Shown: positions 5,181 to 49,526 of the stretch, piece after piece
How the letters are laid out: every line of letters begins with the position of its first letter
Position numbering within the stretch: the first letter of the stretch is position 1
DNA from: an uncultured Alphaproteobacteria bacterium
Lineage (GTDB): Bacteria; Pseudomonadota; Alphaproteobacteria; Rs-D84
NCBI GenBank assembly: GCA_934276735.1
Contig: CAKQTG010000001.1
Span: 418,203-482,202 of the forward strand
DNA length: 64,000 nt
Direction of reading: 5' to 3'
Position numbers and translations under genes: made by a program
Notes under the pieces: model-generated
What the model saw: only the letters and a program-made list of their open reading frames with translations
Told to the model about the DNA's origin: nothing
Databases searched by the model: none

Positions 5181-5197
5181 TCCCAATCTGTTTTTTT
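5164..5197 (+). terminator. Rho-independent terminator (acagattggg...cccaatctg followed by T7)
   Basis: Hairpin overlapping the stop codon of the 1210-aa CDS, followed by a T-run. Confidence 0.6.
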
Positions 5198-5257
5198 GAT
5201 TGACAAAATAAAATATTTGTATTACTGTCTGGTGGGCTAGAACCAAAAGGCAATAAT

Positions 5258-5677: not shown

Positions 5678-5707
5678 AAAAATGACCCGTTTGGGTCATT
5701 TTTTTAT
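5676..5707. terminator. Bidirectional terminator (aaaaaaatgacccgtttgggtcattttttt) between convergent genes
   Basis: Hairpin flanked by A-run and T-run, sitting between the 5258..5677 (+) CDS and grpE (-). Confidence 0.65.
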
Positions 5708-6258: not shown

Positions 6259-6342
6259 GTTTTTGCCTGCCTGTATAATAAATGTCTGATTAAAAACATG
6301 TGCGGGGGCGGCGGATTTGCCCCCACGCCGCACACTATATAT

Positions 6343-11318: not shown

Positions 11319-12458
11319 ATGGAGACGAGAAAAATATTTTATGCGCTGGCGGTGGCAATGCCATTGGTGGCTGCAAACAATGCGTATGCCTGTACGGGTA
11401 TCACATTGAAATCCGACGACGGCGGTGTCGTTGTCGCCCGAACAATAGACTGGTCGCGCGAAGAAATGGATAATATCTATGTTGTTGTCCCACGCGGTCA
11501 AACCCAGACGGCGATTTTGCCAGACAATGCGCCCGGCGGTATGCAATATACTGCAAAATACGGATACGTCGGGCTGGGTATGGAACAGGCAGAATTTATC
11601 GTAGATGGCACGAATGAGGCGGGTTTGTCTGCGGCGTTGTTCTATTTCCCGAAATATGGAAAATACAAGCCCTATGATGAGGCCCTGGCCGGGCAATCCA
11701 TTGGCGATTTGCAGTTGGTGTCGTGGGTGCTGGCAAATTGCGCCACAATCGATGATGTGCGAAATGCACTGCAAAATGTGCGCGTGATAAATATTGATTC
11801 GCGTGCCGATACGGTTCACTGGCGTTTTACCGAGAAAAATGGTCGCCAAATGATTCTGGAAATCGTTGATGGAAACATGAATTTCTATGACAGTCCGATG
11901 GGCGTTTTAACCAACGCGCCGGGATTTTCGTGGCAGACGACGAATCTGAATAACTATGTGAATTTAATCCCTGGGACCGCCGGGCCGATAAATCTGAACG
12001 GCGTAAAGTTATCTGCGTTCGGTTCAGGCAGTGGTTTCCACGGTCTGCCGGGGGATTTTACACCGCCGTCGCGATTCGTTCGCGCGTCGTTTTTGTCGTC
12101 GTATTCACTGAAACAGAAAACCGCATTTGATTCCGCAATGCAGGCGTTTCATATTCTGAATAATTTTGATGTGCCAACCGGTGTCCAGTTCGCTGTTGGT
12201 GCGGCACCAAACAATATGCCGTCGGCGACCCAGTGGACAATCGCAACAGATATGAAAAATATGGTGATTTATTACCATACTATGTATGACCGCACGGTTC
12301 GTTCAATTGATATGTCGGCAATTGACTTTGGCACGGTTGCGTTCCAGACGCACCCGCTGGACACGAACAAGCGTCCGACAATTATGCCGGTGCAAATTGA
12401 TTACAGTGCCCCGGTTGTGGTGGAAACAGACGTGACCGTGACCGAGTTTATGGAATAA
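11319..12458 (+). CDS. Choloylglycine hydrolase / penicillin V acylase family protein (Ntn hydrolase, linear amide C-N hydrolase), secreted
   Basis: Signal peptide followed immediately by the nucleophile Cys (…NNAYAC TGITLKSDDGGVVVARTIDW…), as expected for the CBAH/PVA family. Confidence 0.7.
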   Translation: METRKIFYALAVAMPLVAANNAYACTGITLKSDDGGVVVARTIDWSREEMDNIYVVVPRGQTQTAILPDNAPGGMQYTAKYGYVGLGMEQAEFIVDGTNEAGLSAALFYFPKYGKYKPYDEALAGQSIGDLQLVSWVLANCATIDDVRNALQNVRVINIDSRADTVHWRFTEKNGRQMILEIVDGNMNFYDSPMGVLTNAPGFSWQTTNLNNYVNLIPGTAGPINLNGVKLSAFGSGSGFHGLPGDFTPPSRFVRASFLSSYSLKQKTAFDSAMQAFHILNNFDVPTGVQFAVGAAPNNMPSATQWTIATDMKNMVIYYHTMYDRTVRSIDMSAIDFGTVAFQTHPLDTNKRPTIMPVQIDYSAPVVVETDVTVTEFME

Positions 12459-13880: not shown

Positions 13881-14317
13881 TTGCCAACTCACAAAATTCC
13901 CGTAGGTATTTTTTATGGTTGAAATTTAATTTTTTGGCGATTATAGTGAATATGAATCCAAAGGGATTTGGGTTCGGGGCCTTCAACAAGCCCGTAAATC
14001 TGTGGTATGCGCGATGCGTATATCAAATCCGCACAGTAAAGCGGCGCACATGCGCCATTTATTGTATGTACCCCACCATTATGGTCGGGGATCCACCGGT
14101 AATACAACAGGGGAAACCCAAAGATCGGTGGGGTCATTCTGATTTATGATTTGTTGAAATCCCCGACCGTCAAATAATTTTTGGCGGTTTTTTGTAATTT
14201 GTTTTGACGTATGTCCTGGGGCGATAATTTTGCACTTGCAAGCGTCAAAACAGATGGTATAAATAAAACTAACAGACGATGAAAATCGTCATCATTTGGA
14301 ATGAAAAGGAGAGCCTT

Positions 14318-17300
14318 ATGAAAATGTCCCGTACAGCAATCAAAGAATTAACCGCGGCATATCGTGCCGTATTGAAACATGCATTTATTGCCGCAATGGG
14401 CGCAATGGTCGTTATCGGTGGCGCATCAGCCGAAAATACGAACAATCGTGAATACTTTACAGCAGATACAGAATGGTCTGGTAAAAATATTTCAAACAAT
14501 GATTTTAAGTATGCCGAAGGTCGGACTGATAAAAACAAAGCGTTTGGAGGATTGGCTTTTGTTGATGGGGCAAAATTGACGGTTGCAGATTCTGTGTTTG
14601 ACAATAACACATTTGATTATGTTGGTGGTGTTTTTGCAACTGGCGTCGGTGGGGGCGTATTAGATGTATCTGGTTCAACATTTTCTAATAATCATAGCAC
14701 ATTTGATGGTGGTGCCATTGGTGGCTATGGCGTGTTAAAGGTCACAAATTCTACATTTGTTGGAAACACAACAGATTTGACCAAGGATGCCGAAGGTAAT
14801 TATACTGTTGCAGTTGAGGATAATTTGCCAGTAGGCGGTGGTGCAATTTCGTTTGGTGCGGTTTCATCATCAGATATTGCATCAATCAATGACACAAAAT
14901 TTATTAATAATGTGTCTGGAATAAATGGTGGTGCTATTGGAACGCGTTTGGGCAAGGATGCAAATAACAGTGCAGCAAAATTAAACGTATCGGCAACGTT
15001 TGAAGGCAATCGCGCATATCAAAATGGTGGTGCGATTTATAATACGTTTTATGCGAATAATGGTTTGGAATTGGGCGATGGTGTGACCGTGGCTGGTAAT
15101 TTTACCAAAAATTCCGCAGGCAAAAACGGTGGCGCAATCTTTAACGATGGTGCCAAGGACAATATTGGTAATGCCGGTGGCGTTATGACCATTCGCGATT
15201 CGTTGTTCAGTGAAAACAGTGCAACAAAATGGGGCGGGGCAATCTTTAACAGTGGCACATTGACACTGGGCGATGGCGTTTCGTTCACAGGCAACAGCGC
15301 AACAGATGGTGGTGCGGTTTGGAATGACGGTAAAATGGAAATCGCCGCAGGAACTAAGTTTGTTGGCAATAATAGTAAAAATGCCGCTGGTGCGTTGTAT
15401 AACAATGGTACTGGAACATTGGACAATCTGATTGGTGTTGTTTTTGAAAATAATACCGCGGCGAAGGGTGGTGCTATTAACAATTCAAAAACATCAGCCA
15501 GCGTCAAGGGTGGAATAATAAATCTGATTTCAAAATCACATTTCATTGGTAATTCTGGTGGAATATCTCAAGGGGGGGCAATCCGTAATCAGGGAACTAT
15601 ATCTAAAATTGAAAAGAGTGTATTTGACTCCAACGTCGCAGGAAATGGTGGCGCAATCAATAATGGAACCTGGGGCAGCGTGGTAGAAGGTATTTATCAG
15701 ACAAAGTTTATCAATAATACGGCGGTTGTGGGACCAGCCCAGCAAGGTGGTGCGATTGTCAATGCAGGACACATCGGCATTATTGATGAAACGGTGTTTG
15801 AATCAAACCATGCTGGCAAGATTGGTGGTGCAATAGCAAATGTGACCCCACAAAATAGTGGTGGCGACCCTGCAGAGGTTAATATTGCAAATTCTACATT
15901 TACAGGTAATGTTGCCGGTGAAAGCGGTGGTGCAATATACAATGCCACAGGTGGGGCGGTAAGTCTGTCTGGGGAAAATACGTTTACTGGTAATATGGCG
16001 GGTGGCGTCGGAAACGATATTCACAATTTGGGTAAATTGACGGTGTCGGGCGGCACAACGACCATTGATGGCGGTATCACAGGCGATGGCGCATTGACCA
16101 TTGCTGATGGCGCAACACTGAATATCGGTACCACAACGGTTCAACAAAAAGAATTGACACTGGACGGCACGGTTGGAGTATCACTGATAGACGCTGAAAA
16201 TTACGGTAAATTGTGGGTGGAAACATATACAGGCAACGGTAAGATTGCGCTGAATGTTGCAACGCCTGGGACATACGATGTTTTTGGAGAGTATGTCGTG
16301 TATGATAATGTTGATGCCGGTGCGGTATATAACATGGTCAGAGATGGCGGTAAGTTCACTTTCAAAACCAAAGCAGTGAATGAAATTGCAGCTGACACTG
16401 GGTTGACGAATGTTGCCGCAAATACGGTTGCTGCGTTGGCAAATGCAGATAACAATTTGGCAAATATTGCATCGCTGAACGCGCAACAGGCATTGCGTAA
16501 TGGCGATACAGATTATGTTGAAATCGAATCTGCCAAGGCAAACCCAATTGATCAACCTGTCGTTCAATCGGTTGCGCAATCTGTTCAGGGCGCAGTCATG
16601 ACACTGGCGGCGAATCGTATGGCGGGCACACCATCGGCGGGCACAATGGGCCGCAGCGGTGGTGATTTGTCTGATGCTGATTACGGCGTGTGGGCACAGG
16701 GTATGTTTAACAAATCCAAATTCAATGGCCAGTTCAACGGATACACCCGTGGTGTGTCGGCTGGGTTTGATGCGCTGATTGACAAACAGTACACGATTGG
16801 TTTGGGTTATGCGTTCGGACATTCTGATGTTCATGCCAATGGCGGTCGCGATACCGAAATTGACAGCAATAGCATATTTGCATATGCCCAGTACAAGCCA
16901 AGCGAATGGTTCGTCAATGCGGCATTGAATTACACAATGTCAAAATATACCGAAACCGTTGACGCATTTGGTGTTCGTCTGAAATCAGACCACGATACTG
17001 ATGCGTTCGGTGGCCAGGTTATGACCGGTTATGATTTTGCATCAGGCCTGACGCCGGAAATTGGTCTGCGCTATTTGCACGTGACCCAGGACGGATACAA
17101 TAACGGTCTGGCACACGTCAGCAGCGATGATACAGATTTCTTGACTGGAATTGCCGGTATGAAATATCGTTTCGCAATTGAAAACGATTCGGTTATCAAC
17201 TGGTTCCCAGAACTGCGTGCGGCGGCGACGTATGATTTTGTGTCTGACCGTGCGATGTCCACCGTTACAATGCCAGGCGCGGCGTCCTATGTGGTTGATG

Positions 17301-17449
17301 GCGACCGTCTGTCCCGATTCGGTGGGGAATTCGGAATTGGTCTGACCGCAGAATACAAAGGACTGGAAATCTCGCTGGTTTATGATTTGGATCTGCACAA
17401 AGATTACACATCACAAACCGGTATGGCAAAATTCAGATATGAATTCTGA
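14318..17449 (+). CDS. Polymorphic-outer-membrane-protein (Pmp)-like autotransporter. The passenger is full of GGAI and FxxN repeats; a C-terminal beta-barrel ends in ...KFRYEF.
   Basis: At least 12 GGA[IV] motifs (GGAISFG, GGAIGTR, GGAIYNT, GGAIFND…) alternate with F(V/T/E/I)GN motifs. The C-terminal ~300 aa is beta-strand-like and ends in an aromatic residue. Start moved to ATG 14318, six nt after an aaggag RBS. Confidence 0.8.
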   Translation: MKMSRTAIKELTAAYRAVLKHAFIAAMGAMVVIGGASAENTNNREYFTADTEWSGKNISNNDFKYAEGRTDKNKAFGGLAFVDGAKLTVADSVFDNNTFDYVGGVFATGVGGGVLDVSGSTFSNNHSTFDGGAIGGYGVLKVTNSTFVGNTTDLTKDAEGNYTVAVEDNLPVGGGAISFGAVSSSDIASINDTKFINNVSGINGGAIGTRLGKDANNSAAKLNVSATFEGNRAYQNGGAIYNTFYANNGLELGDGVTVAGNFTKNSAGKNGGAIFNDGAKDNIGNAGGVMTIRDSLFSENSATKWGGAIFNSGTLTLGDGVSFTGNSATDGGAVWNDGKMEIAAGTKFVGNNSKNAAGALYNNGTGTLDNLIGVVFENNTAAKGGAINNSKTSASVKGGIINLISKSHFIGNSGGISQGGAIRNQGTISKIEKSVFDSNVAGNGGAINNGTWGSVVEGIYQTKFINNTAVVGPAQQGGAIVNAGHIGIIDETVFESNHAGKIGGAIANVTPQNSGGDPAEVNIANSTFTGNVAGESGGAIYNATGGAVSLSGENTFTGNMAGGVGNDIHNLGKLTVSGGTTTIDGGITGDGALTIADGATLNIGTTTVQQKELTLDGTVGVSLIDAENYGKLWVETYTGNGKIALNVATPGTYDVFGEYVVYDNVDAGAVYNMVRDGGKFTFKTKAVNEIAADTGLTNVAANTVAALANADNNLANIASLNAQQALRNGDTDYVEIESAKANPIDQPVVQSVAQSVQGAVMTLAANRMAGTPSAGTMGRSGGDLSDADYGVWAQGMFNKSKFNGQFNGYTRGVSAGFDALIDKQYTIGLGYAFGHSDVHANGGRDTEIDSNSIFAYAQYKPSEWFVNAALNYTMSKYTETVDAFGVRLKSDHDTDAFGGQVMTGYDFASGLTPEIGLRYLHVTQDGYNNGLAHVSSDDTDFLTGIAGMKYRFAIENDSVINWFPELRAAATYDFVSDRAMSTVTMPGAASYVVDGDRLSRFGGEFGIGLTAEYKGLEISLVYDLDLHKDYTSQTGMAKFRYEF

Positions 17450-18289: not shown

Positions 18290-20845
18290 CTATTGCCCAG
18301 TGCCTGTGCCACCGCCCGATGTGTTGTCGCTTGTCGTTGCGCCATTGGTGGTTGAGTTGTTATTACTGGTTGTTTCGTCATCTGAGGCACGGCAATAACC
18401 CCATTTTGTATTTGCACCTGTTTCGGAATAGAATTTCTGGTGCAATTTATGTCCCGTAATGTCATGCTTGCCGTTACCACCTTTCGTGTTGTTTGTGGCC
18501 TGTTGGTCGGTTGTGGTTTCGGTGGAATCGTTTTCTTCTTGGTCAATCCATTGCGTATCAACCCACAGTCCGTTCAGACGTTTGCATTCCGCCGCTAGCA
18601 CTGTTGCCATTTCAACACGTATTGAATCCATGACGACATTTACATCTTCCATAACAGTGGTCGGCAATACGTAATTGGATTTGGTCGCCTCGGACGGACG
18701 GACACAGGTCTGCATTGCGTAGCGCACCATTTTTTGATACAGACTGCCGATATAGTCGGTGCCACATTTGCTGGTGTCAACCTCTGGTTCGTCCGGCGTT
18801 TCTGTGCCGCCGCATACACCATCCGTGCATGGCTGGCAACTGTTGCCGGTGGTGAGGGTGTTGTCTGCAACCCATATACCGTTTTTACGGACCGCCAGGA
18901 AGTAACCTTGTTTGCAACGCGTGTATTGTTTGCTGGTTGGGCAAATGTATCCGGATGCGGTTGATGTGTCGCCATCGTCACCGCCCGGTGTATTGCCGCC
19001 GGTATCATCATCGCCACCACTGTCGCCATTATTGCGATTCCACAATTCCTGGTTACACTGGTAATTTGTGGCGTATTGCTGTTCGCCCGGCGCATACACG
19101 CGGCAACCATACGGATATGCGTGCAGACTGTCGTTAGATGGGACGGCGCACATGTCGCGTGCAAATTCTTGCAAAGTGACACGGCATTCCTTGCCAATCT
19201 TTTGATCGGTGATGTTGCGCATGGCCTGGACCAGTAAATCCAGGGCGTTGCCGGAACCGTCGCTATATAACATGCTGCACGCCTGTAATTTTTCCTTGCA
19301 CATTTCTTCGGATAATTCCAGGCGCGACCCCCGTAATAATTGCTCTTTGACATTACTAAAATCTTTTAACGATTTGCTCTGTTCATCGTAACAGGCATTT
19401 ACGACGTCCAGACATTCGTTTTTGACGGTGCGGATTCGTTCATGCTGGCCCTGGTATATTTCGGCGATTGCCTGGCGCATGAATTCATCCCACACATCGT
19501 CGGCCAGATCGCGACACGTGTCCAGTCCGCGCGCGGCGTATGCACGCTTGCTGTTTAATTCGGCGACAATCAGGCGGTTTGAAGGATTGGTCAACACGTC
19601 GCCCGATAATGAAATCTGGGTTTCCAATTGGTAAAAATCCGCCGTGTAAATAGGTTCGCCCTTGTCCCGGGTCAGATACCGGCCAGATATATCCAGACAA
19701 TGAACATAATCTGTGCCACACGCCGTGTCGGCGGTGATATCCTTGCGCACCTGGGCGATACAGTCGTTGATTGATGTTGAATTATGGGCGTTATAATTTT
19801 CCAGACGCGCGTCGTTCATTTCGCGCTCGGTGCTGCGTATCGTGCCCTGGGCGGTCGCCAGTTTTTTATTCAGTGCCGTCAGCAATGTTGTGCAATCGTT
19901 TTCAATATACATGCCATACGCTGCGACAACCATGTTCAGGGTTGATCGTGACGGACAGCGTTCAGAAACCAAATCGGCACACTGGCTGTGCACCGCGTTG
20001 TATAATGATTCCCCGGTCAGGTTCGCAATGTTTGCGCCCGATGCCAAATCTGTGGTTGCCCAGATTGCGTTTATGTCGCCGGCGATGTCCAGTGTCCCCA
20101 GTGTTGATAACGAATTTGATTTGGTCTTGGTTAAAACCGCACTGATACCGGCCAGTTTTTGCGCCGATGATGAATTGTCGCGTGCGGTTGATGCCGCAGT
20201 TTCGCCGGTGGTCGCGTTGACCATTGCCTTGACCTCGGCCGCGGTTTTGGGAATAACCTCTATATTCAAGTTCTTGAAATCTTGCAGTTGGTCAGATGCC
20301 TGGCCCAGGGCGCGTTCACGTGATTTTATTTCGGTCAGCTTGGACGAGCATACGCACCGACGGTATGTGTCATCTTGTTTTGCACAGAATTGATCCATGC
20401 ATGAAAAGTATGCGTCACGGCACGTGTTGTATCCGGTGCCAAATGTGTTTGTGCCGGCCGCCGATGTGGTGGTGGCGCGGGCGACCGCCCCGCTGCGCGC
20501 GACGGTTTTTGTTGCACTGCGTGCAGATGATTGTGTCGTGGTCGCACTGCGCGCGGTGGTTGTTGCACTGCGTGCGGTGGTGTTGGTGCGGGCCGCACTG
20601 CGCGCCGTGGCGGTGCGGTTGACCGTATTGCGTGCGGTGGTGCGCGCCGTTGCATTACGTGCGGTGGTCGCGGTTGCCCCCGTGCGCGTTGATGTTTGTT
20701 GTGATTGTGCGGTGTCTGATTTTGCGCGCGTGGTGACACTGTCTCTGGGCGTGGTGCGGGTGACGCTGGACGCGCTGCGCACCGCGGCATCGGCAAAACC
20801 GATGCCGGCACAGAGTGTTGCGGCAAAAAGCAAAATCTTTTTCAT
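18290..20845 (-). CDS. Paralog A of the large secreted Cys-rich protein family (851 aa). Signal peptide, then a T/A/R-rich tandem-repeat linker, then the family motif CRDAYFSCMDQFCAKQDDTYRRCVCSS, then a Cys-rich helical body.
   Basis: Start moved to ATG 20845 (MKKILLFAATLCAGIGFADA). Motif and downstream blocks (ACGTDYVHCLD, CRDLADDVWDEF) align with paralogs B and C. Confidence 0.75.
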   Translation of the reverse strand: MKKILLFAATLCAGIGFADAAVRSASSVTRTTPRDSVTTRAKSDTAQSQQTSTRTGATATTARNATARTTARNTVNRTATARSAARTNTTARSATTTARSATTTQSSARSATKTVARSGAVARATTTSAAGTNTFGTGYNTCRDAYFSCMDQFCAKQDDTYRRCVCSSKLTEIKSRERALGQASDQLQDFKNLNIEVIPKTAAEVKAMVNATTGETAASTARDNSSSAQKLAGISAVLTKTKSNSLSTLGTLDIAGDINAIWATTDLASGANIANLTGESLYNAVHSQCADLVSERCPSRSTLNMVVAAYGMYIENDCTTLLTALNKKLATAQGTIRSTEREMNDARLENYNAHNSTSINDCIAQVRKDITADTACGTDYVHCLDISGRYLTRDKGEPIYTADFYQLETQISLSGDVLTNPSNRLIVAELNSKRAYAARGLDTCRDLADDVWDEFMRQAIAEIYQGQHERIRTVKNECLDVVNACYDEQSKSLKDFSNVKEQLLRGSRLELSEEMCKEKLQACSMLYSDGSGNALDLLVQAMRNITDQKIGKECRVTLQEFARDMCAVPSNDSLHAYPYGCRVYAPGEQQYATNYQCNQELWNRNNGDSGGDDDTGGNTPGGDDGDTSTASGYICPTSKQYTRCKQGYFLAVRKNGIWVADNTLTTGNSCQPCTDGVCGGTETPDEPEVDTSKCGTDYIGSLYQKMVRYAMQTCVRPSEATKSNYVLPTTVMEDVNVVMDSIRVEMATVLAAECKRLNGLWVDTQWIDQEENDSTETTTDQQATNNTKGGNGKHDITGHKLHQKFYSETGANTKWGYCRASDDETTSNNNSTTNGATTSDNTSGGGTGTGQ
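20480..20720. repeat. Intragenic tandem repeat (~24-30 bp units encoding TTARNATARTTARNTVNRTATARSAARTNTTARSATTTARSATTT) inside paralog A
   Basis: Reiterated gcactgcg(t/c)gc(g/a)gtggt… units are visible in the DNA. Confidence 0.6.
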
Positions 20846-20956
20846 CCTTGGCTTTGTGATAATGATAGCAAAAATGCCCTTTTCGGGGCAAGGGTTATTT
20901 CGCACAATCGCGCAATTTTTTTGCAAAAATAATCCCGCAGATTACGGGACTTTTTA

Positions 20957-21205: not shown

Positions 21206-21345
21206 AGTTTATCCTTAGCATTTTTCTGAATTTTTACTGGTCTAATATTATATTTTTGCATAAAAAATTGCAAGTTGTTTTTATCTGCTTGCACGGCGGG
21301 GCCGGATTTGATAAAATTAGACATAATAATGTAGGGTGGAGTCAT

Positions 21346-23514
21346 ATGAGATTAGGCTTGTTTTTCACATTGTTGTGTGTTGTGCCGGGACTGGCATATG
21401 GGGCGGCGCGTGATGATACGAACGTTCGTGTCGGGGTGACGCGTATGTCAATGGCGGGTGCGCGTGCGCCAAATATGACGGGAAATCTGGGCGGAAATAA
21501 AACCACCACGCCGACGATACCAACCACCAGCAGCAGTGGTGGCACAACAAATCCGACGCCAAATCCAACACCCACTCCCACACCAGAACCGACACCGGCC
21601 CCCGCGCCAAATCCGGGCACGTCCGACGCTGGCACTGACACATCGTGTCGCACGGCGTATCGCGCGTGTATGGATGAATTCTGCCTGTTGGACGAGAGCG
21701 AGGGTAATCGTTGCGCCTGTTCGGATAACATAAACAAATCAAAATCATTGATTCAAGAAATTCAAAAAATTCAATCAGACGCTGATAATTTATACACCGA
21801 GGGGGTAGAGCGCGAACAACTGGGGGCCAAGGCAAAACTGGTATTTGGCCAGAGTGCGGCCGCACAGAAAAGTTCGCGTGCATCGGGACTGAGTTTTACC
21901 GAGTGGTTAAACAGCGACAATAATTCGGATTCGCTGGGTGCGGACGAAGATATTGGCGATGGTCTGTATTCGATGGCGGCAACATATTGTGCCGACGCAT
22001 TGGCGAAATGTGGCAGTTCTGCCGATATGGAAGAGGCGTTATATTCTCGTCAAATTGTTGCCGATTGCAAGGCGTTTGATTCATATCTGGCCGACCAGAA
22101 ATCAAATGCCCAGGCCAACAAACGCACGGCCGAGGCCGCTGTGCGCAAGGCGCGTCTGGAAATGTTGGATACAACAAATAAATATAACCGCGGCGAATGC
22201 CTGTTGGCGTATAAATCGTGTATCGCGGACAAGGGCGGCTGTGGCGCGAACTTTGAAAACTGTTTGGATCGCGACCTGTTGGGGCGTCGTGCAAATGCGT
22301 GCGAAAATGTTCTGGACCAGTGTATGGCGGTGCGGGACAGTGTATTACAGGATTGGGATGCAGAATCCGAAAGTATTTTAGTTGATGCGGCGAAATACGC
22401 GGATAAAAATGCCCGCGCAACATGTCTGGCACGGATTCAGGTCTGTTTGGAAGATGGATGCAGCACGGCAACAAATTCGGCGTGCCTGACCGATGTCAAG
22501 GTTGCGGCCGGTGTTTGCCCGGTTATTACCGAATGCGAAGAAATGATTCCGGGTATCCAAAGTGCGGTCAATGATAAACTGGGGTATCTGCGGACGCATT
22601 TCTGCCAGAACGATATTGATAAATGCCTGCAAAGCAAGTGCGGTGAAAACTTTACTGCGCCGGAATGCGTTGGTAAAAGTGCAACGGAAATTGCCGCGCT
22701 GTGCCCCCAGGATATGTATCCGTCATGCAAAAACGAAACCCAATTTGACATAATTGTGCAATCGGTTTTGTTACAGATGGATTACCAGATGTTGCAAGGG
22801 TGCCTGAATTACTTTGGCGAACAGTTGGGCAAGGTTTGCGGCACGGATATGTCGTGCCTGCCGACGGATACGACGATTGCGTCACTGACGTCGGTGCCGG
22901 ACGATTCTGCGGCATTGGCGCAGTTGCGCGAAACCGTGCGCAGCAATGTTGCCACGTCGGTGGATGAATTCTTTACCCAGTTTGAACAGGATAAAACGGT
23001 TGCTGCCTGTGCAGACAGCCAGAAACCCGCCGGTAAAAAATCATTGGGCGACACGGTGTTCAACAGTGCGAAAATGATCGCACAAATCGGGGCGGAAAAT
23101 CGTGCGATGCGCGCATTGGAAACCAAGATTTCAGAACTGTCGCGCCAGCAAGATTTGAATGCGGCCGAAAAGAACTGTCTGAATACATACAAGGTGGAAT
23201 CGCCGGACAAATCGTCCAAGAATTACAGTTATATCCGCAGTGTATCGTTTGAACCATCGTTGCGTAATTGCCATGTGTGCCGTATGCAACAGGTCTGCGA
23301 AACGGGTGGCGAATCCAAGGGAACCGCGGGCCTGAAAGGATTGGCGGGCGGCCTGTCGGCGGGTGCGGCGGCTGGCACGATGGTGACCCCGGGGTGGGGC
23401 ACGGCAATCGGCGGTGTCGTTGGCGCGGTTGGTGGTCTGTTCGCAGGGCGCAGTGCGGGTGGCAAACAAGAATTCTGCCAGGAAATTGAATCCTGTGAAG
23501 ATATAAATATGTAA
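21346..23514 (+). CDS. Paralog B of the large secreted Cys-rich protein family (722 aa). Signal peptide, P/T-rich linker, motif CRTAYRACMDEFCLLDESEGNRCACSD, Cys-rich body, C-terminal RNCHVC box, glycine-zipper hydrophobic tail.
   Basis: Start moved to ATG 21346 (ggtggagtcatATG; MRLGLFFTLLCVVPGLAYG). Blocks YSRQIVADC, NKYNRGEC, CGANFENC and CENVLDQCMAVRDSV are shared with paralog C. Confidence 0.8.
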   Translation: MRLGLFFTLLCVVPGLAYGAARDDTNVRVGVTRMSMAGARAPNMTGNLGGNKTTTPTIPTTSSSGGTTNPTPNPTPTPTPEPTPAPAPNPGTSDAGTDTSCRTAYRACMDEFCLLDESEGNRCACSDNINKSKSLIQEIQKIQSDADNLYTEGVEREQLGAKAKLVFGQSAAAQKSSRASGLSFTEWLNSDNNSDSLGADEDIGDGLYSMAATYCADALAKCGSSADMEEALYSRQIVADCKAFDSYLADQKSNAQANKRTAEAAVRKARLEMLDTTNKYNRGECLLAYKSCIADKGGCGANFENCLDRDLLGRRANACENVLDQCMAVRDSVLQDWDAESESILVDAAKYADKNARATCLARIQVCLEDGCSTATNSACLTDVKVAAGVCPVITECEEMIPGIQSAVNDKLGYLRTHFCQNDIDKCLQSKCGENFTAPECVGKSATEIAALCPQDMYPSCKNETQFDIIVQSVLLQMDYQMLQGCLNYFGEQLGKVCGTDMSCLPTDTTIASLTSVPDDSAALAQLRETVRSNVATSVDEFFTQFEQDKTVAACADSQKPAGKKSLGDTVFNSAKMIAQIGAENRAMRALETKISELSRQQDLNAAEKNCLNTYKVESPDKSSKNYSYIRSVSFEPSLRNCHVCRMQQVCETGGESKGTAGLKGLAGGLSAGAAAGTMVTPGWGTAIGGVVGAVGGLFAGRSAGGKQEFCQEIESCEDINM

Positions 23515-23530
23515 TATTCGGGCATAAAAT

Positions 23531-25972
23531 ATGAATATAAAAAATATATTGACGTTTGTGATTTGTGGTGTTGTGGCCGTGGGCGCGGGTGACGCGTTGG
23601 CGGCGGCCAAGACATCGAAACAGGCGGCAATACAAACCGGGACAAATGTTCGGGCGCGGCTGACGGCAACAGGTCTGTATGACCAGGAATGTTATGACGC
23701 GTATTATTCGTGCATGGATCAATTCTGTATCGCGGATAATTCCAGTGGGGGCAGTTGCGCATGCAGTGACGAAAACGCAAAATATGAACAACAACTGGCC
23801 GAAATCCAAGATATGGTGGACGAGGCCGCACGTATCCGCACCGAAGAGGTTGAAAAGGTTCGCGCGGGTGCGGATGCCGATATTATATTTACGGGCGAAC
23901 GCAAATACGATGAAAACGGCAATATTATCAAGACGGGCGAATTGACCGCGGCAGAAAAAAAAGCCCAAGACCGCCAGAGTTTGATGGCGTTGTTTAACGC
24001 GACCAGCGACGATGACGAAGATGTTGTAACAGGTATCGCGGACAAGGCCGGCAACGCGCTGTATAACGCGGCCCAGGAACTGTGCACGGCCCAGATTCCG
24101 GACAAATGTTCGTCTGATTTGAATTTCTTGACCCAATTATATTCACGCCAGATTGTATCAGACTGTCGCGGTTTTGAAAACAGCATCAACGCCAAAATGG
24201 CCACCGCAAAGCAAGACTTGGTTACTGCCCAGGGCGAAGTGCGCACCGCACTGCAAGAAAGTTTTGAATCGGCCAATAAATATGATTTGGGCACATGCAT
24301 GGTGGAATTTAAAAAGTGCATGCAGACCGATGATGCCTGTGGCGCGGGTTGGGAAAATTGTGTTTCGACAATTGCATCTGAAAATATGCAAAACAATACC
24401 GCGGTCAGCACCGCCGGCACCACGGTTGCAACGGTTGATAAATATGACATAACCACGTCAACCATGGAAATCTTGAATTCCAAGCGCACCATTTGTGAAA
24501 AGGTTTTGGACCAATGCGTCGCCGTCCGCGACCAGGTTTGGCCGGCGTTCCTGCGCGAAGCGGCCCCAACGATAAAGGTTGCCGAATCCCAGGTTGAATC
24601 AAAGTTTCGTCAATCGTGCCTGGGCACAATTTCCGACTGTATCCAGACGGCGTGTCGCGACGATATCGCGGGCAAGGGCGTTGCAACAATGGACGCATGC
24701 TTGGCACGTCCCGATATGGCACGCAGTTTCTGCAAGGTTGAAATTGACCCGTGTGAACGCATGGAACCGCAAATTTGGGACTATGTAACCGATAAACTGG
24801 CGGCGATGCGTGTTGATGCCTGCACGAACGAGGTCAAAGAGTGTTTTACCGCGGATACACGTTGCGGCGCGAATTTCCAGAACTGTATCGGTATGGATTA
24901 CGATTATATTCACGATATTTGCCCGATTGACACGTTGGTTGTCTGCAAACAGAATAACAAAGACTTTTCAATGGATGATTTGGATTCTATGTTGATGGGG
25001 CTGTATCTGAATATTGATAACAGTGCGCTGACCCAGTGTGAAAACCTGGTCGACACCAAAATGGCCGAAATTTGTGGCAGCACCACCGACTGTAACAAAT
25101 TCGCCAGTGATGATACAATTGGCACCGGATCATTGCGTTCCCAGAAAGATGGCACGACGTATCGTGTGACCGGTATGATTTCGTTCGGCAGTATCAAGAT
25201 GGGCGACGCGTCTGGCAAAACGATTGACAATGGCGATGGCAAGACTGTGCGTCTGGGCCCCGGTGAAATCGGTGTTGCAGAATACCTGAACCAGATTCGC
25301 ACGCGCAATTCGTCGGTCAAAAATGCCGATGGCATCATTTCGTCAATTGAAGAAGAACTGAACAACATTGCTGGCACAATCAATCGCACAATTGAAATGA
25401 TTGAACAGGACCCGCAAATCCAATACTGTGTGAACGGGCGCGATTTGTCCCAGATTACGGGCAAGGCGAACCAGAAAACCACGGCACGTTTTCCGAACCT
25501 GTTAAACAGTGTGAAAATGCAAATCGCGGTCGCTGCACTGCGCCAGGCCCAGGATAACTATAACGCCAAACTGAATAAACAAATCGCAGACGCAACCAAA
25601 GACGCGTCCACAGATTTGGCGCAATATATGTGCCAGAAAATGGCCGAAACCGGCGGGGCGGGCACAACCGGAATTTCATCATCAACGCCGCTGGCGGCAC
25701 CATATGCAATCAGTTATGATGTGGGCTCGGGCCTCAGTAATGATGACCTGACACGTGGCGGGACGGGTGAAACATCAATTACGACCACCGCGGGCAGTGG
25801 CGTCACCAAAACCGTGACCAGTCTGTTTAACCGTGAAACACGTAATTGCCACGTCTGCACCACAACCACCACACAGAGTTGCACTATAAAGGGCGGCAAT
25901 TGGTTCCGCAAGGCGAACAAGAATTGCGACGTTAAAACCGATGGCCCGAATTGTGAAGATATCGCAATGTAA
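23531..25972 (+). CDS. Paralog C of the large secreted Cys-rich protein family (813 aa). Signal peptide, motif CYDAYYSCMDQFCIADNSSGGSCACSD, Cys-rich body, C-terminal RNCHVC box.
   Basis: 16 bp downstream of paralog B, so probably in an operon with it. Blocks YSRQIVSDC, NKYDLGTC, CGAGWENC and CEKVLDQCVAVRDQV are conserved. Confidence 0.8.
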   Translation: MNIKNILTFVICGVVAVGAGDALAAAKTSKQAAIQTGTNVRARLTATGLYDQECYDAYYSCMDQFCIADNSSGGSCACSDENAKYEQQLAEIQDMVDEAARIRTEEVEKVRAGADADIIFTGERKYDENGNIIKTGELTAAEKKAQDRQSLMALFNATSDDDEDVVTGIADKAGNALYNAAQELCTAQIPDKCSSDLNFLTQLYSRQIVSDCRGFENSINAKMATAKQDLVTAQGEVRTALQESFESANKYDLGTCMVEFKKCMQTDDACGAGWENCVSTIASENMQNNTAVSTAGTTVATVDKYDITTSTMEILNSKRTICEKVLDQCVAVRDQVWPAFLREAAPTIKVAESQVESKFRQSCLGTISDCIQTACRDDIAGKGVATMDACLARPDMARSFCKVEIDPCERMEPQIWDYVTDKLAAMRVDACTNEVKECFTADTRCGANFQNCIGMDYDYIHDICPIDTLVVCKQNNKDFSMDDLDSMLMGLYLNIDNSALTQCENLVDTKMAEICGSTTDCNKFASDDTIGTGSLRSQKDGTTYRVTGMISFGSIKMGDASGKTIDNGDGKTVRLGPGEIGVAEYLNQIRTRNSSVKNADGIISSIEEELNNIAGTINRTIEMIEQDPQIQYCVNGRDLSQITGKANQKTTARFPNLLNSVKMQIAVAALRQAQDNYNAKLNKQIADATKDASTDLAQYMCQKMAETGGAGTTGISSSTPLAAPYAISYDVGSGLSNDDLTRGGTGETSITTTAGSGVTKTVTSLFNRETRNCHVCTTTTTQSCTIKGGNWFRKANKNCDVKTDGPNCEDIAM

Positions 25973-27221: not shown

Positions 27222-27560
27222 AAGAGAGCAATGCGCAGAGAGCAGAGAGCAATGAAGCGCGCCAGTGGCGCGCTTGTTTTTATCGTCGCGGTCTAAGTTC
27301 CCCTTCGCTGGCGAAGGGGTGTCCACATAGTGGACGGGGTAGTGGTGGTCCCTGCGGGGCAATGGATACCGGCCTGCGCCGGTATGACAGTTGTGTGTGG
27401 TTGAGGACCATATTTTACGAACATAGTTTATGTCTTAGTTGCGGACCAAGTTCTCCTCCGGTAACCACCCGCGAAATTGATAAATTTCGTGGGTGGTTAC
27501 CAGGCCGGGGCCCATTGCCCCGCAGGGACATCGTTGCCCCAAAAAAACACAAAAAATCAT
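27222..27560. repeat. Mosaic intergenic repeat array (modules M1-M5). An inverted near-copy of the same ~250-bp composite is at 54920-55200.
   Basis: Contains agagagcagagagcaatgaagcgcgcc…gcttgtttttatcgtcgcgg, gttcccct…gcgaagggg, ggataccggcctgcgccggtatgac, ccacccgcgaaattgataaatttcgtgggtgg, all of which recur elsewhere in the window. Confidence 0.8.
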
Positions 27561-27619
27561 GCTGAATAAAAGGGGGTGAATCACGCGGAAATCAGGGCAA
27601 AAATACCCATAAAACCGTG

Positions 27620-27744
27620 CCGAAAATAAACCACCGTTTGGTTTTGACGTAAATTCGCGCTTGGTGATTGGTAAAAAATGTGCTAAAATTAAACCATTGT
27701 ATATAAGTGAGAAATGCCGAACCCAAACGGTGGTTTATTTTCGG
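27620..27744. promoter_or_regulatory. Perfect 22-bp inverted repeat (27620-27641 / 27723-27744) bracketing an 81-bp segment with promoter-like elements (TTGGTG …17 bp… TGcTAAAAT) upstream of the 27760 CDS
   Basis: ccgaaaataaaccaccgtttgg is an exact reverse complement of ccaaacggtggtttattttcgg. An extended -10 TGnTAAAAT lies between the arms. Confidence 0.5.
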
Positions 27745-27759
27745 CGCGGGGGATATATT

Positions 27760-29823
27760 ATGAAAAAAATCTGGTTTCTATCAATGTGTTGTGCGTGTAT
27801 GTTGGTCGGAATTTCTAATTCATATGGTGATTGTGGCGGAGATCAGTGCCAGTATAAGTTGTCTGATGGAACAACAGATTGCGCTAACATCGGCGAGGTC
27901 AGGCCCTTTAAGTGTAGACTCGGTAGCGGCGGCGTATATAGTCTAGATCATGTAAAAGTTGGAGACGGCGAGAATCATTGCGATGCAAAATGCAAGTCTG
28001 GAGTGTTTTCTAATTGGTGGTATTATACATTGCAGTCTGACGCATGCGAAGATGGGTGGAAGGTTGACTTCGATAAAAAAATCTGTGTCGCTGCTGATAA
28101 CCAAAAATGTAAATACACCGATGGGACGTTTGCTCAAACAGGTGTTGTTCGGAATAAGGGCAACTGTATTTTTGCTAGTCTAGAACATATAAAAAATGGT
28201 GGCAAGGGCCAGTGCAAGAACACGTGTAAGTCTGACGGTTGGTATTCGGAATTACACAATGACGCATGTGAAGATGGGTGGCTGGTTTCTGCTGATAAAA
28301 AAAGCTGTTGGCCGAAATGTAAAGAAAACCAGTGTGTACAGTCGGTTGATGGTAAAAAATCCTGTGTTGACAGCGGCAAGAGTGTTTACGAGAACTGCAA
28401 AACAGGGGATGGGGGCATAGATAGCCTGGAGCATGTAAAAGGTGGCAGTGGCTGGTGCACGGTCATGTGTGTATCAGGAAAGTGGGGACAACGAGAGTTG
28501 CGCCCCAATGCATGCGAATCTGGTTATGTGGTTGCCGCCAATAAAAAAAGCTGTGTTGCGGCCGAGAAAAAAAGCGATGTTGACGTGCCAGCGTCTGACC
28601 AGGGTGCGTCGAAACAGAAACCTGGTGCCTGTAAAGAAAACCAGTGTATATCTTCCCTTGATGGTAGCTGTATTGACAGCGGCACGAGTTTTAACGATAA
28701 CTGCAACACTGGGGAAGGAGGCATAGATAGCCTGGAACATGTAAAAGATGGTGGCTCGATTCAGTGCACGGTCACATGTGTATCAGGAAAGTGGGGACAA
28801 CGAGAGTTGCGCCCCGATGCATGCGAATCTGGTTATGTGGTTGCCGCCGATAAAAAAAGCTGTGTTGCCGACGATAAAAAGGGTGATGCTGGTGCTGATG
28901 CCTCGTGCGAGCTGGGGAAAGCATGTAAGCCATCCAGCCATGGCGCAAAGGGTGATGGAATATGTATCAAATATCAGGGTGACACGGTTAGTTGTGCGGC
29001 AACGGCGTGCGATACAGACAATGGATATCACCTGGTAAAGCAAAATGGTCAATCCATGGGATGGTGCCAAAAGTGCAAAAAGGACGAGCAGGTAAATGCC
29101 ACCGGCGATGGTTGCGTGTCGAAAAGTGCGAATGGCAATTGCCCCTATGAAGACGGGACGTCTGCCCAAACAGGTGACGTTGTGAACGATACGAACTGTG
29201 TTTCAGTTAATCTGGATCATGTAACAATGGGGGGTAAAGACCGGTGCAAGTCCACGTGTAAGTCTAATGGTTGGGATTATGAATTACACGTTTACGCATG
29301 TGAATCTGGTTATGTGGTTGCCGACGATAAAAAGAGCTGTGTAGAGAAAACCACCGTCGCAGCCGAGAAAGATATCAATCCGACAGAAACTTTGACGGAC
29401 AGCAAACAGGTCACCTGTGGTAAAATTATTGGTGCCCAGTGGATTGATGGCGAGTGCAGATGCACAACTGCCGGGTGGGTTATGAATGCGACTGGAACCC
29501 AGTGCGTCAAGGGCGAGGCACTGATAAAGGCCGAGCGGTTGTCGGCGTCCCGGACGAATATAAGCCGCCTGTATAAAAAACTGGACAGCATGTCAAATGA
29601 CTTTAAGGTGTCGGTATGGCGTGACAAACAGGGGAATTTTAACACATCGCGTCTGGCGTCTGATTCAATTGCGGCGGTGGTGTTGGGGACGACGGGGGCG
29701 TTGGTAACCAGCAGCGTTGTAAAAAAGAATCAGGTATCCAGTGGGTTTGAAGGTATTAGTTGCCAGATAGGCGGCCAGACCGTTGCCGGCTGGGGTGACG
29801 AGTTCAGTGTTGGAATGCAATAA
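27760..29823 (+). CDS. Secreted Cys-rich tandem-repeat protein (687 aa; about 60 Cys). It is built from ~100-aa repeats carrying C-x-S-G-[KW]… and C-E-[SD]-G-[WY]-[VL]-V-[AS]-A-[DN]-KK-S-C units, with a C-terminal hydrophobic anchor.
   Basis: Start moved to ATG 27760 (MKKIWFLSMCCACMLVGISNSYG). Repeats such as CVSGKWGQRELRPNACESGYVVAANKKSCVAA and CVSGKWGQRELRPDACESGYVVAADKKSCVAD differ by two residues. Confidence 0.8.
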   Translation: MKKIWFLSMCCACMLVGISNSYGDCGGDQCQYKLSDGTTDCANIGEVRPFKCRLGSGGVYSLDHVKVGDGENHCDAKCKSGVFSNWWYYTLQSDACEDGWKVDFDKKICVAADNQKCKYTDGTFAQTGVVRNKGNCIFASLEHIKNGGKGQCKNTCKSDGWYSELHNDACEDGWLVSADKKSCWPKCKENQCVQSVDGKKSCVDSGKSVYENCKTGDGGIDSLEHVKGGSGWCTVMCVSGKWGQRELRPNACESGYVVAANKKSCVAAEKKSDVDVPASDQGASKQKPGACKENQCISSLDGSCIDSGTSFNDNCNTGEGGIDSLEHVKDGGSIQCTVTCVSGKWGQRELRPDACESGYVVAADKKSCVADDKKGDAGADASCELGKACKPSSHGAKGDGICIKYQGDTVSCAATACDTDNGYHLVKQNGQSMGWCQKCKKDEQVNATGDGCVSKSANGNCPYEDGTSAQTGDVVNDTNCVSVNLDHVTMGGKDRCKSTCKSNGWDYELHVYACESGYVVADDKKSCVEKTTVAAEKDINPTETLTDSKQVTCGKIIGAQWIDGECRCTTAGWVMNATGTQCVKGEALIKAERLSASRTNISRLYKKLDSMSNDFKVSVWRDKQGNFNTSRLASDSIAAVVLGTTGALVTSSVVKKNQVSSGFEGISCQIGGQTVAGWGDEFSVGMQ
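28318..28929. repeat. Intragenic tandem DNA repeat, unit ~306 bp. Two near-identical copies (about 28318-28623 and 28624-28929) are flanked by more degenerate copies.
   Basis: For example 28461-28560 and 28767-28866 are ~97% identical; 28318-28475 matches 28625-28780. Confidence 0.8.
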
Positions 29824-29850
29824 AAAACGCGCCGATGGCGCGTTTTTTTA
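29824..29850. terminator. Bidirectional terminator (aaaaacgcgccgatggcgcgttttttt)
   Basis: CGCGCC-GATG-GCGCG hairpin with A/T runs on both sides, between convergent CDSs. Confidence 0.7.
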
Positions 29851-39462: not shown

Positions 39463-40200
39463 GAGAGCATCCGTCTCCGCTGCGCTCCGTCGCGATAAAG
39501 AGAGCAGAGAGCAATGAAGCGCGCCGATGGCGGACACTCCTTATTTGTCATTCCCGCGTAGGCGGGAATAGGGACTATACAGTGCGAGCGAACGCGAGCC
39601 ATGTCCGAGCAATTGCGGATTTTATTATTGGTGACTAATCACTCAATTGTGACGTGCCAAGGGAACACAATGGATACCGGCCAGGCACCACCCACGAAAT
39701 TTATCAATTTCGCGGGGCCCGGACGGCCGGTATGACGGTGGTGTGTGGTTTGGGTGCTAATTTTTACGTATATTGTGCAACAATGAGCAAAAGTAATTTC
39801 TTAGTCCCTATTCCTGCCTTTGCCCACCCACAAAATCTTGCGATTTTGCGGGACCCGGAGCAGGAATGACAATAAGCACGCACTGTGTGTGACATTATTA
39901 CCTGGATCCTGGGGTCAAGCCCCAGGATGACAAGAGTAAAAATGTGCTAAGTTCCCCTCCGGTGGAGGGGTGGCACGCAGTGCCGGGGTGGTCTTGAGAG
40001 CCCGTAATGTTGAACAAGTGTAAAATACAAAAGACCACCTCCCCGCTGCGCGGGACTCCTCCATGGAACCACCCACAAAATTTGACAATTTCGCGGGGCC
40101 CGGAGGAGGAGAACTTAGTCCGCGACGGAAACGAAACAAAGTTCCCCTCTGGCCAGAGGGGAACTTTAATTTTATCACTCTATCACTTACTCACTAAAAA
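39463..40200. repeat. Mosaic intergenic repeat array (~740 bp) between rlmE and the dsbA-like gene, using modules M1-M6
   Basis: agagagcatccgtctccgctgcgctccgtcgcgataaagagagcagagagcaatgaagcgcgcc is identical to 45209-45275. Other module copies: cattcctgcgcaggcaggaatagggactatacagtgcgagcg, ggataccggccaggcacc, ccacccacgaaatttatcaatttcgcggggcccgg, ttgtgcaacaatgagcaaaagtaatttcttagtccctattcctgcc, cctggatcctggggtcaagccccaggatgacaagagtaaaaa, gttcccctccggtggagggg, gttcccctctggccagaggggaac. Confidence 0.85.
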
Positions 40201-40228
40201 AAACGGGGCGGGGCCCCGTTTTTTTATT
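40198..40228 (-). terminator. Terminator for the dsbA-like gene (aaaaaacggggcggggccccgttttttt)
   Basis: Hairpin flanked by A/T runs, immediately 3' of the minus-strand CDS. Confidence 0.65.
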
Positions 40229-41048
40229 TTTCCAATGCCCGGATAATCTGGTCATATGGAATTGCACCTGGGAATGCCTGTTCCTGGACAATCAAGAACG
40301 GTGTGCCGCTGATTTCAAACTGTTGTGCCAAATCACGAACGTTTGCCATTTCACGGGCAACAACCTCGCCATTCATGTCTTTCTTTAATTGAGTGGTGTC
40401 CAGACCTGCTTCTTCGGCCATTTTCAGCACGTTCTTTTCAACCTTTTCGGCGATTTTAGACTGGTCTTTCAAATCGTCCTGGGTATAGAATTCACGTGTC
40501 ATCATCATGTCAACCAATTTTGCGGCCTTTTCTGGGCTCTGCAATTTTGCAGCAATCGCGGCCTTGGCTGGGGCATCAGATAATGCGCCATGGATAGAGA
40601 AGTTTTTAACAACAACGCGGACGTCATTGCGGGCCTTTAATACACGGTCCAGTTCACCGTGAACACGGCGGCAGTATGGGCAGCTGAAGTCTGTCCAGAT
40701 GTAGATTGTCTTTTTCGCATCCTGGGCACCCAAAATCGGGGCATCAGCAATCATTGTGTCGGCGTGATCGCGAACAAATGTGCGAACGGCCTTGTTCTTT
40801 TCAGCGTTCAGCTGTTCCTGGGCACCGTTGGCCATCTGTTGGATAATCAGCGGATTGACCGATGTCAGGTAATATGGAACATACAAGCGGCAAACGCTGC
40901 CTGCGACCAAGATGATGGCAAAAACCTTTGTTGCTTTCTTTGCCAATTTCAAACCAGCACTGGATTCGTTACCGATATGGGCCAGCAACATGCCGCCAAA
41001 CATATACAGCGCAATACCCAGAACCAGAACCAAGATTGTCCAAGTCAT
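40224..41048 (-). CDS. DsbA-family thiol:disulfide interchange protein with N-terminal membrane anchor
   Basis: Thioredoxin-fold CxxC active site (FSCPYCRR). N-terminal TM helix. RBS aaggag. Confidence 0.75.
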   Translation of the reverse strand: MTWTILVLVLGIALYMFGGMLLAHIGNESSAGLKLAKKATKVFAIILVAGSVCRLYVPYYLTSVNPLIIQQMANGAQEQLNAEKNKAVRTFVRDHADTMIADAPILGAQDAKKTIYIWTDFSCPYCRRVHGELDRVLKARNDVRVVVKNFSIHGALSDAPAKAAIAAKLQSPEKAAKLVDMMMTREFYTQDDLKDQSKIAEKVEKNVLKMAEEAGLDTTQLKKDMNGEVVAREMANVRDLAQQFEISGTPFLIVQEQAFPGAIPYDQIIRALEK

Positions 41049-49358: not shown

Positions 49359-49526
49359 ATTGGTGTAAAGAATAGCAATCTATTTTGCACCCTGCAAGTA
49401 ATATTTGCATCGGCAAAAAATCGTGTTTTTGGAAAAATCAAGCCCTTTATTTAAAAAACATTGCTTGCGCCCGTCTTTTTCCGGGGGGCGATTTGTGATA
49501 AAATAGTATCCAGGGAAAACGGAGAG

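Follow-up and report, generated by a model that had tools for sequence, protein, structure and literature searches.

We analyzed a 64,000-nucleotide stretch of contig CAKQTG010000001.1 (hereafter the window), from an uncultured alphaproteobacterium of the order Rs-D84, and in it the gene at 27760-29823 on the forward strand, which encodes a cysteine-rich modular protein of 687 amino acids (aa). The gene probably encodes a phase-variable, fast-evolving envelope protein of this reduced-genome gut bacterium, an explanation that we hold with somewhat better than even confidence. Four points are notable: the protein belongs to a lineage-wide family defined by its C-terminal domain, its repeated module is partly EGF-like, its ectodomain is hypervariable, and an invertible element lies upstream of the gene.

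The open reading frame (ORF) is real: it has an ATG start with a Shine-Dalgarno-like GGGGGA 6 nt upstream (27748-27753, + strand, read by eye), a signal-peptide-like N-terminus, and an identical protein in the NCBI and ENA assemblies. An alternative TTG-started ORF (27661, 720 aa) is a mere read-through of the upstream element. The peptides quoted in the original prediction, and the hydrophobic stretch AAVVLGTTGALVTSSVV, are all found in the protein, which is laid out as follows (AlphaFold confidence is given as the predicted local distance difference test, pLDDT):

27760-29823, + strand: coding sequence of the Cys-rich modular protein, 687 aa, including the stop codon
27760-27828, + strand, aa 1-23: signal peptide MKKIWFLSMCCACMLVGISNSYG, with KK, a 15-aa hydrophobic run and S-Y-G, kept in orthologues
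27832-28095, + strand, aa 25-112: module 1 (M1), 8 Cys, placed by the module profile
28099-28314, + strand, aa 114-185: module 2 (M2), 6 Cys, placed by the module profile
28318-28563, + strand, aa 187-268: module 3 (M3), 8 Cys, placed by the module profile, AlphaFold pLDDT 91
28630-28875, + strand, aa 291-372: module 4 (M4), 8 Cys, placed by the module profile
28906-29115, + strand, aa 383-452: module X, a different 8-Cys unit, conserved in the orthologue
29131-29349, + strand, aa 458-530: module 5 (M5), 6 Cys, placed by the module profile
29410-29511, + strand, aa 551-584: membrane-proximal 4-Cys knob, from a motif count across the family
29512-29616, + strand, about aa 585-619: predicted helical stalk (helix at residues 4-32 of a 105-aa fragment, pLDDT 72-86)
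29617-29820, + strand, aa 620-687: conserved C-terminal anchor domain (25 invariant columns in 23 diverse members)

The family is defined by its C-terminus of about 70 aa, not by the repeat, which plays a minor part in it. Searching exhaustively with a profile of the C-terminal 138 aa, we recovered 941 representative clusters at E <= 1e-3, of which 393 reach E <= 1e-30; for nearly all of the best 150 of the 941 the match extends to the protein C-terminus, and the proteins are typically 400-600 aa long. The invariant columns of the 23 diverse members fall within the last 70 aa, and their ectodomains are unalignable. The anchor consists, in order, of W-x4-G-x-FNTSRLASDS (family-wide, W-x4-G-x-FNT-x-RLASDS), the hydrophobic stretch IAAVVLGTTGALVTSSVV, KK, and a 31-aa tail that contains one invariant Cys and ends in VGMQ; the hydrophobic segment (aa 637-654) is rich in small residues, and the KK after it is invariant. 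No Pfam, NCBIfam or PDB sequence match to this domain was found with the protein, nor any Pfam match with the 23 diverse C-termini, and the NCBIfam models of C-terminal sorting signals (LPXTG, PEP-CTERM, GlyGly-CTERM and others) gave only a chance hit of 14.5 bits. Unlike the short basic tail of a sorting signal, 33 conserved residues, including the invariant KK, follow the hydrophobic segment. All sources that name a family member call it a hypothetical protein.

The family is visible only through exhaustive profile search. A word-indexed search with the whole protein recovered three clusters (the protein itself, one orthologue with 72% identity over 70% of the query, and one sharing the C-terminus alone), and a similar search using the C-terminal profile recovered only short fragments, all hypothetical proteins without a Pfam domain. 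With the module profile it missed even the source protein, a prefilter effect that makes it uninformative for short Cys-rich profiles. A scan of one genome per species confirmed 276 loci; all 77 listed of these come from gut metagenome-assembled genomes labelled Alphaproteobacteria, Candidatus (Ca.) Enterousia or "uncultured Rickettsiales", the hosts being humans, ruminants, rabbit, mouse and others. Each genome carries one to five copies. The family is large, unnamed and confined to a small-genome gut lineage of Alphaproteobacteria, the order Rs-D84 (Ca. Enterousia), whose genomes of about 0.75-1.0 Mb lack respiration and standard transporters and whose members have been proposed to be obligate symbionts or parasites that draw metabolites from other cells (PMC12306168).

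The ectodomain differs even between close relatives. The five related assemblies represent three strains: the window and L001 (1 nt difference in 22 kb, with an identical protein on three contigs), L088 and L089 (100% identical), and L079 and L090 (100% identical to each other and about 94% to L088/L089). At the orthologous locus L079, from another sample, the same genes follow downstream (DUF308, APH, TspO, Dus, RodZ and UvrA) and the flanks are 90-96% identical to the window; the gene has three modules vs. five in the window, and its distal half looks unrelated. From the DDKKGD linker onward the two proteins are 87% identical. The ratio of nonsynonymous to synonymous substitution rates between the window and L079 (dN/dS, Nei-Gojobori) is 0.52 in the shared part of the ectodomain, 0.155 in the last 105 aa and 0.04-0.18 in five neighboring genes. 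On these module counts and dN/dS values, module number and distal sequence evolve fast and the anchor is constrained.

Directly upstream of the gene lies a short segment bounded by inverted repeats, a feature absent from the original prediction:

27615-27644, no strand assigned: left inverted-repeat arm, 30 nt, with a perfect 22-nt core CCGAAAATAAACCACCGTTTGG at 27620-27641
27645-27719, no strand assigned: invertible core, 75 bp, with a reverse-complement match in a related strain
27720-27749, no strand assigned: right inverted-repeat arm, 30 nt

The arms are 93% complementary and 75 nt apart, and the element ends 10 bp before the ATG. The 22-mer of the arms has only two sites in the 64 kb, with none expected by chance. 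The core of L079 matches that of the window at 72 of 75 positions as the reverse complement and at 39 of 75 directly; L090 behaves likewise, and the L088/L089 core matches the window in direct orientation. Thus, the window, L001, L088 and L089 share one orientation, L079 and L090 have the other, and the cores of L088/L089 and L079/L090 become identical when one is reversed. Where the arms mismatch, at their inner ends (TTTAG and TTTGG), the sequence travels with the core; the crossover thus falls in the perfectly matching outer stretch, AAAATAAACCACCGTTT. An explanation of the inverted repeats at the RNA level alone was rejected because the core is inverted in L079; Rfam returned nothing but tRNAs at the gathering threshold, and around the switch it gave no more than chance hairpin hits.

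In the window orientation the core contains, by eye, a promoter-like pair of elements directed at the gene, TTGGTG (27661-27666) and TGcTAAAAT (27681-27689), with a 17-nt spacer; the opposite strand shows no comparable match in the same reading. The TGnTAAAAT sequence also occurs in three analogous elements, within the core in L053 and L028 and within the arms in L012. The flipped switch (L079:662-901, L090:659-856) has no stop codon, and gene callers extended the orthologous ORF by about 80 codons, so that the called N-terminus reports the switch orientation: the extended orthologous proteins P0002, P0004 and P0005 begin MWRGN... or MLNKRD.... Inverted repeats with 66-99-nt spacers, in which we distinguished CCAAACGGTGG-like and ATTTTATCATAAAT-like types, lie upstream of 13 of 76 family genes vs. 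3 of 474 random windows; when metagenomes were scanned with the repeat arm, eight single-arm hits emerged, probably by chance. The 75-bp flippable segment probably turns the gene on and off, and it is among the shortest proposed invertible promoters.

The overall placement of the family is itself conserved. Family genes are found in a conserved dnaA/gyrB block in 58 of 77 fetched loci (among L002-L078), the usual order being plsY, a gene of unknown function, dprA, dnaA, one or two family genes, a small unknown ORF and gyrB. The window copy has a different setting, with a BOF/YgiW-like gene on one side and a DUF308 gene on the other, a position common only to the close relatives L079, L089 and L090; the family is near-universal in the lineage, with extra copies at variable sites. 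In five loci (L009, L012, L028, L053 and L067, at about positions 3000-6400) the space between dnaA and gyrB is occupied by two divergently oriented family paralogues. The two members of every pair agree at 99-100% over the last 70 aa but at only 28-55% across the ectodomain, and in four pairs (L009, L012, L028 and L053) the intergenic gap of about 100-160 bp contains a repeat-flanked element of 66-88 nt; no such inverted repeat was detected in the gap of the L067 pair. The paired paralogues and their shared element suggest a toggle between two ectodomains on one anchor. Where the locus extends far enough, secretin and TcpQ-like genes are seen upstream of plsY; these adjoin dprA in the conserved block and are more likely to serve competence than to be an export route.

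The repeated Cys-rich module that drew attention to the gene is real and present in five copies, each matching the module profile at about 1e-30, and its occurrence, usually once, in about 15 other family members gives independent support. It has thus been amplified in the window gene, and it has no profile match elsewhere in the window. Each copy has six invariant and two optional Cys, with the consensus ...QC...DG...G....NC....SLEHVK.GG...C...C.SG.W..EL..DACESGYVVAADKKSC. By comparison, the 4-Cys knob is the commonest ectodomain unit of the family (413 copies in 101 of 152 members), and module X is rare (4 of 152).

The dimensions and age of the repeats differ from those first proposed. Modules of about 100 aa had been described; they measure 72-88 aa, plus linkers. 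Tandem Repeats Finder lists no long-period array corresponding to the near-identical 306-bp tandem array that had been claimed, and the two units said to be about 97% identical in DNA (28318-28623 and 28624-28929) have a mean column identity of 88% with three indels. The cores of M3 and M4, which are separated by an acidic/basic linker, share 86% DNA and 80% protein identity, with 91% in the best 128-nt block; the remaining pairs of modules reach 55-69% in DNA and 41-56% in protein. Given that even the best pair is 86% identical and the longest exact match is 39 bp, the case for a recent duplication acting as a RecA hotspot is weak. Expansion and contraction of the repeats receive support from the difference in module number among close relatives (five vs. 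three), whereas the repeats themselves are old and diverged. The Cys count, given as about 60, is 52: 3 in the signal peptide and 49 past it, of which 48 precede the C-terminal hydrophobic segment and 1 follows it.

The repeated unit is a new Cys-rich module that is EGF-like in part. AlphaFold2, run on one module with a 10-sequence module alignment, gave a confident all-beta model (pLDDT 91.4) composed of a beta-sheet half and an EGF-like C-terminal hairpin. Pfam cEGF (PF12662) matches the protein at 28.8 bits against a gathering cut-off of 26.6 (E = 1.1e-6, two stretches, best at aa 354-369). The module profile aligns to the second EGF domain (EGF2) of factor Xa (E = 0.08), and the model superposes locally on EGF2 of factors IXa, Xa and VIIa over about 27 residues at about 2 A root-mean-square deviation (E > 2). 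The likeness lies in the C-E-x-G-[YW]-x-V-x-x-[DN]-K-K-S-C beta-hairpin, which is closed by a disulfide. The canonical C4-x-C5 of six-Cys EGF domains is replaced by A-C, with Ala at C4 (module pattern ...C-x3-C-...-A-C-E-x-G-[YW]-...-C), and nothing in EGF corresponds to the N-terminal beta-sheet half of the module. For the module as a whole, Foldseek found no significant match in the PDB (best E = 0.22, TM-score 0.25) or among viral models (BFVD, best E = 0.27). The earlier view that the repeat was not a recognized one therefore holds in that no named family covers the protein, and fails for the C-terminal half of the module, which cEGF matches. Nonsignificant Foldseek hits to chitin-binding type 2/peritrophin-A proteins (Blo t 12, E = 0.22; several viral proteins, E = 0.4-2) may hint at such a likeness in the N-terminal half of the module; we treat this as a lead and nothing more, there being no Pfam match to chitin-binding type 2 (CBM14) in the protein.

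The distribution of Cys across the family bears on the location of the protein. Among 106 members with a recognizable signal peptide, the number of ectodomain Cys is even in 95 (48 in the window protein; family median 27), and the odd-count exceptions mostly carry a Cys right at the crudely predicted cleavage site. The anchor region, taken from RLASD onward, has exactly one Cys in 105. An even ectodomain count together with a lone anchor Cys is the pattern expected of a disulfide-bonded extracytoplasmic ectodomain, and on these counts the tail Cys would have no partner in the same molecule. A DsbA-like thioredoxin-fold gene in the window (40224-41048, - strand, 274 aa) encodes a plausible oxidase for the family. 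The window also encodes a SurA-like chaperone and an OmpA-family protein, as well as an autotransporter (14279-17449, + strand, 1056 aa) with Chlamydia PMP repeats and a C-terminal Autotransporter beta-domain, which is a second surface candidate. These DsbA-like, SurA-like, OmpA-family and autotransporter genes mark the organism as one with both a periplasm and an outer membrane. A lipoprotein reading was rejected for the window protein, which has no lipobox; one is possible in a few relatives. A secreted, disulfide-stabilized modular protein with a C-terminal hydrophobic anchor, as originally described, is thus supported.

A membrane helix at the C-terminus is favored by the single hydrophobic stretch directly before the invariant KK, the helical stalk upstream, and the lone tail Cys. 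The small residues of the segment recur at i, i+4, i+7 and i+11, forming one helical face that resembles a glycine zipper. AlphaFold modeled the C-terminal 105 aa with a mean pLDDT of 58.6, the tail appearing at low confidence as short beta-strands (E69-77, 80-88 and 91-94); this model was kept out of the fold search because of its low pLDDT.

We propose that the protein is exported by Sec, that a DsbA-type oxidase would form all 24 disulfides of the ectodomain, and that the weakly hydrophobic, small-residue C-terminal segment would hold the protein in the membrane with KK and the tail in the cytoplasm; the protein would probably oligomerize through the stalk. The invertible segment would carry the promoter, the window orientation being ON and the flipped one OFF, and a site-specific recombinase encoded elsewhere in the genome would flip it. 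In genomes with a divergent paralogue pair, a shared switch would select which of the two variants is expressed. The protein would likely serve in contact with host or partner cells, or in evasion of phage or immune recognition.

Several observations weigh against a phase-variable envelope protein. A stricter consensus promoter scan did not flag TTGGTG/TGcTAAAAT. No recombinase domain was found by Pfam in 48 of the 54 window ORFs of at least 90 aa, the other six (111-133 aa) lying outside that scan. The two orientations differ between strains about 94% identical and not within one population, so that a fixed inversion is possible. The hydrophobicity of the C-terminal segment is marginal (Kyte-Doolittle maximum 1.75; about +1.8 kcal/mol by a hand estimate on the Hessa scale), and AlphaFold gives no helix there (pLDDT 41-56). 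Finally, an anchor in the inner membrane would leave the variable ectodomain in the periplasm unless a further export step follows, and this is a poor fit with a variable, switchable protein. The same point bears on the surface adhesin that had been suggested: it is plausible, but in a bacterium with two membranes a C-terminal membrane segment by default means the inner membrane.

This last objection leads to a rival in which the protein is a disulfide-rich periplasmic rod, anchored in the inner membrane, that spans or organizes the periplasm, or that senses or binds something there; inversion would still regulate it. The signal peptide, the one C-terminal hydrophobic segment followed by the invariant KK, and the single tail Cys are as expected of such a rod, as is the presence of outer-membrane biogenesis genes in an organism whose family protein shows no outer-membrane anchor or secretion signal recognizable by Pfam or NCBIfam. 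That most genomes keep one copy in the same place between dnaA and gyrB would also suit a core cellular role. Hypervariable ectodomains, raised dN/dS, paralogues that share a switch, and module shuffling are instead typical of exposed molecules under diversifying pressure and not of housekeeping proteins in the periplasm, and we regard the rod as possible but, on balance, unlikely.

More doubtful is a second rival, in which the C-terminal 70 aa assemble into an oligomeric beta-anchor in the outer membrane, resembling that of trimeric autotransporters, with the Cys-rich part as passenger on a coiled-coil stalk. A helical stalk does lead straight into the C-terminal domain of about 70 aa, in which Gly, Ala, Ser and Thr abound; AlphaFold models its final strands, which are amphipathic, as beta; the hydrophobicity of the segment is low; and the RLASDS-IAGV motif loosely recalls what we take to be a YadA-type pore helix. 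Yet neither the protein nor the 23 diverse C-termini have a YadA_anchor or Autotransporter Pfam match at E <= 10, and the PDB search gave no sequence match; the last residue (Q, R, H or K) is not aromatic, and the small residues follow one helical face instead of alternating. A passenger with 48 oxidized Cys is also hard to reconcile with type V secretion. Together these points make the beta-anchor improbable. That the repeats are an assembly artefact, as can happen when repeats are mis-assembled in a metagenome-assembled genome such as this source, or that the gene is a decaying pseudogene, can be dismissed as extremely unlikely, since the repeats are too diverged to collapse with exact matches no longer than 39 bp, the protein is identical on three contigs, L001 departs from the window by a single nucleotide in 22 kb, the ORF is intact with its Cys pattern preserved, and the orthologues and 941 family clusters keep the architecture.

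Returning to the phase-variable envelope protein, we tentatively offer a bolder extension, in our view doubtful: the 70-aa C-terminus may be a new module for anchoring or sorting in the envelope, and the family a set of invertase-switched coats, a bacterial counterpart of protozoan variant surface proteins. If so, a two-membrane bacterium would display folded, disulfide-rich ectodomains through a C-terminal module, and a few alternative coats would let an obligate gut symbiont or parasite attach to partner or host cells while evading phage or immune recognition.

The remaining features of the window are as follows. Immediately downstream of the gene a hairpin resembling an intrinsic terminator, CGCGCC-GAT-GGCGCG followed by T7, was read from the sequence at 29828-29849 (+ strand); it is absent from the output of the terminator scan. 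Upstream, at 27285-27540, lies a GC-rich intergenic repeat with nested inverted repeats (arms 27348-27376 and 27501-27529, hairpin 27460-27501) that recurs at 54912-55104, 53186-53335, 39668-39716, 40067-40126 and 63712-64000, the copies being up to 96% identical over 193 nt. It looks like a dispersed repetitive extragenic palindromic (REP) element or miniature inverted-repeat transposable element (MITE), has no Rfam match, and adjoins family genes in L002, L003, L009, L024, L041, L059, L064 and L079. Three large ORFs without a Pfam match, at 18290-20926 (- strand, 878 aa), 21256-23514 (+ strand, 752 aa) and 23531-25972 (+ strand, 813 aa), sit just upstream of the MscS and BOF genes. The ORF at 1548-5180 (+ strand, 1210 aa) has a weak, sub-threshold ankyrin-repeat match at its N-terminus and is possibly involved in host interaction. 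A choloylglycine (bile-salt) hydrolase family gene (11319-12458, + strand), which fits a gut habitat, and a DNA methylase (N6_N4_Mtase) with a RAMA domain (49461-50627, + strand) were also found.

Rs-D84 (Ca. Enterousia) is widespread in human and animal guts. A family kept by such tiny genomes, often beside dnaA, is a concrete candidate for a cell-contact or coat protein. With it, the known repertoire of bacterial envelope proteins gains an uncharacterized C-terminal domain and a new Cys-rich module.

Three known systems invite comparison. Like the trimeric autotransporter adhesins (YadA/Hia), the family combines a signal peptide, a modular part, a helical stalk and a conserved C-terminal domain of about 70 aa; it differs in lacking an anchor-domain match and a terminal aromatic residue, in its Cys-rich passenger, and in a hydrophobic segment that looks helical. 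The variant-specific surface proteins (VSPs) of Giardia have a Cys-rich variable ectodomain, a near-invariant C-terminal membrane segment with a short tail, and switched variants. The likeness is one of analogy only, namely a variable Cys-rich ectodomain on a near-invariant C-terminal anchor, with alternative variants: there is no sequence relationship or Pfam VSP match, CXXC is not enriched here, the host is a bacterium, a genome carries 1-5 copies vs. about 200, and switching is proposed to occur by DNA inversion vs. post-transcriptional silencing.

Invertible promoter switches include fimS of E. coli with FimB/FimE, the capsule promoters of Bacteroides fragilis with Mpi, and the "invertons" of gut bacteria. 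The core described here measures 75 bp vs. about 314 bp in fimS, the repeats are unrelated, the 48 window ORFs scanned include no adjacent recombinase gene, the organism is an uncultured alphaproteobacterium with a reduced genome, and the two orientations are known between strains only. What is shared with these switches is a short, repeat-bounded segment that occurs in both orientations, contains a promoter-like element and lies just upstream of an envelope-protein gene and, in related genomes, a single element placed between two divergent variant genes.

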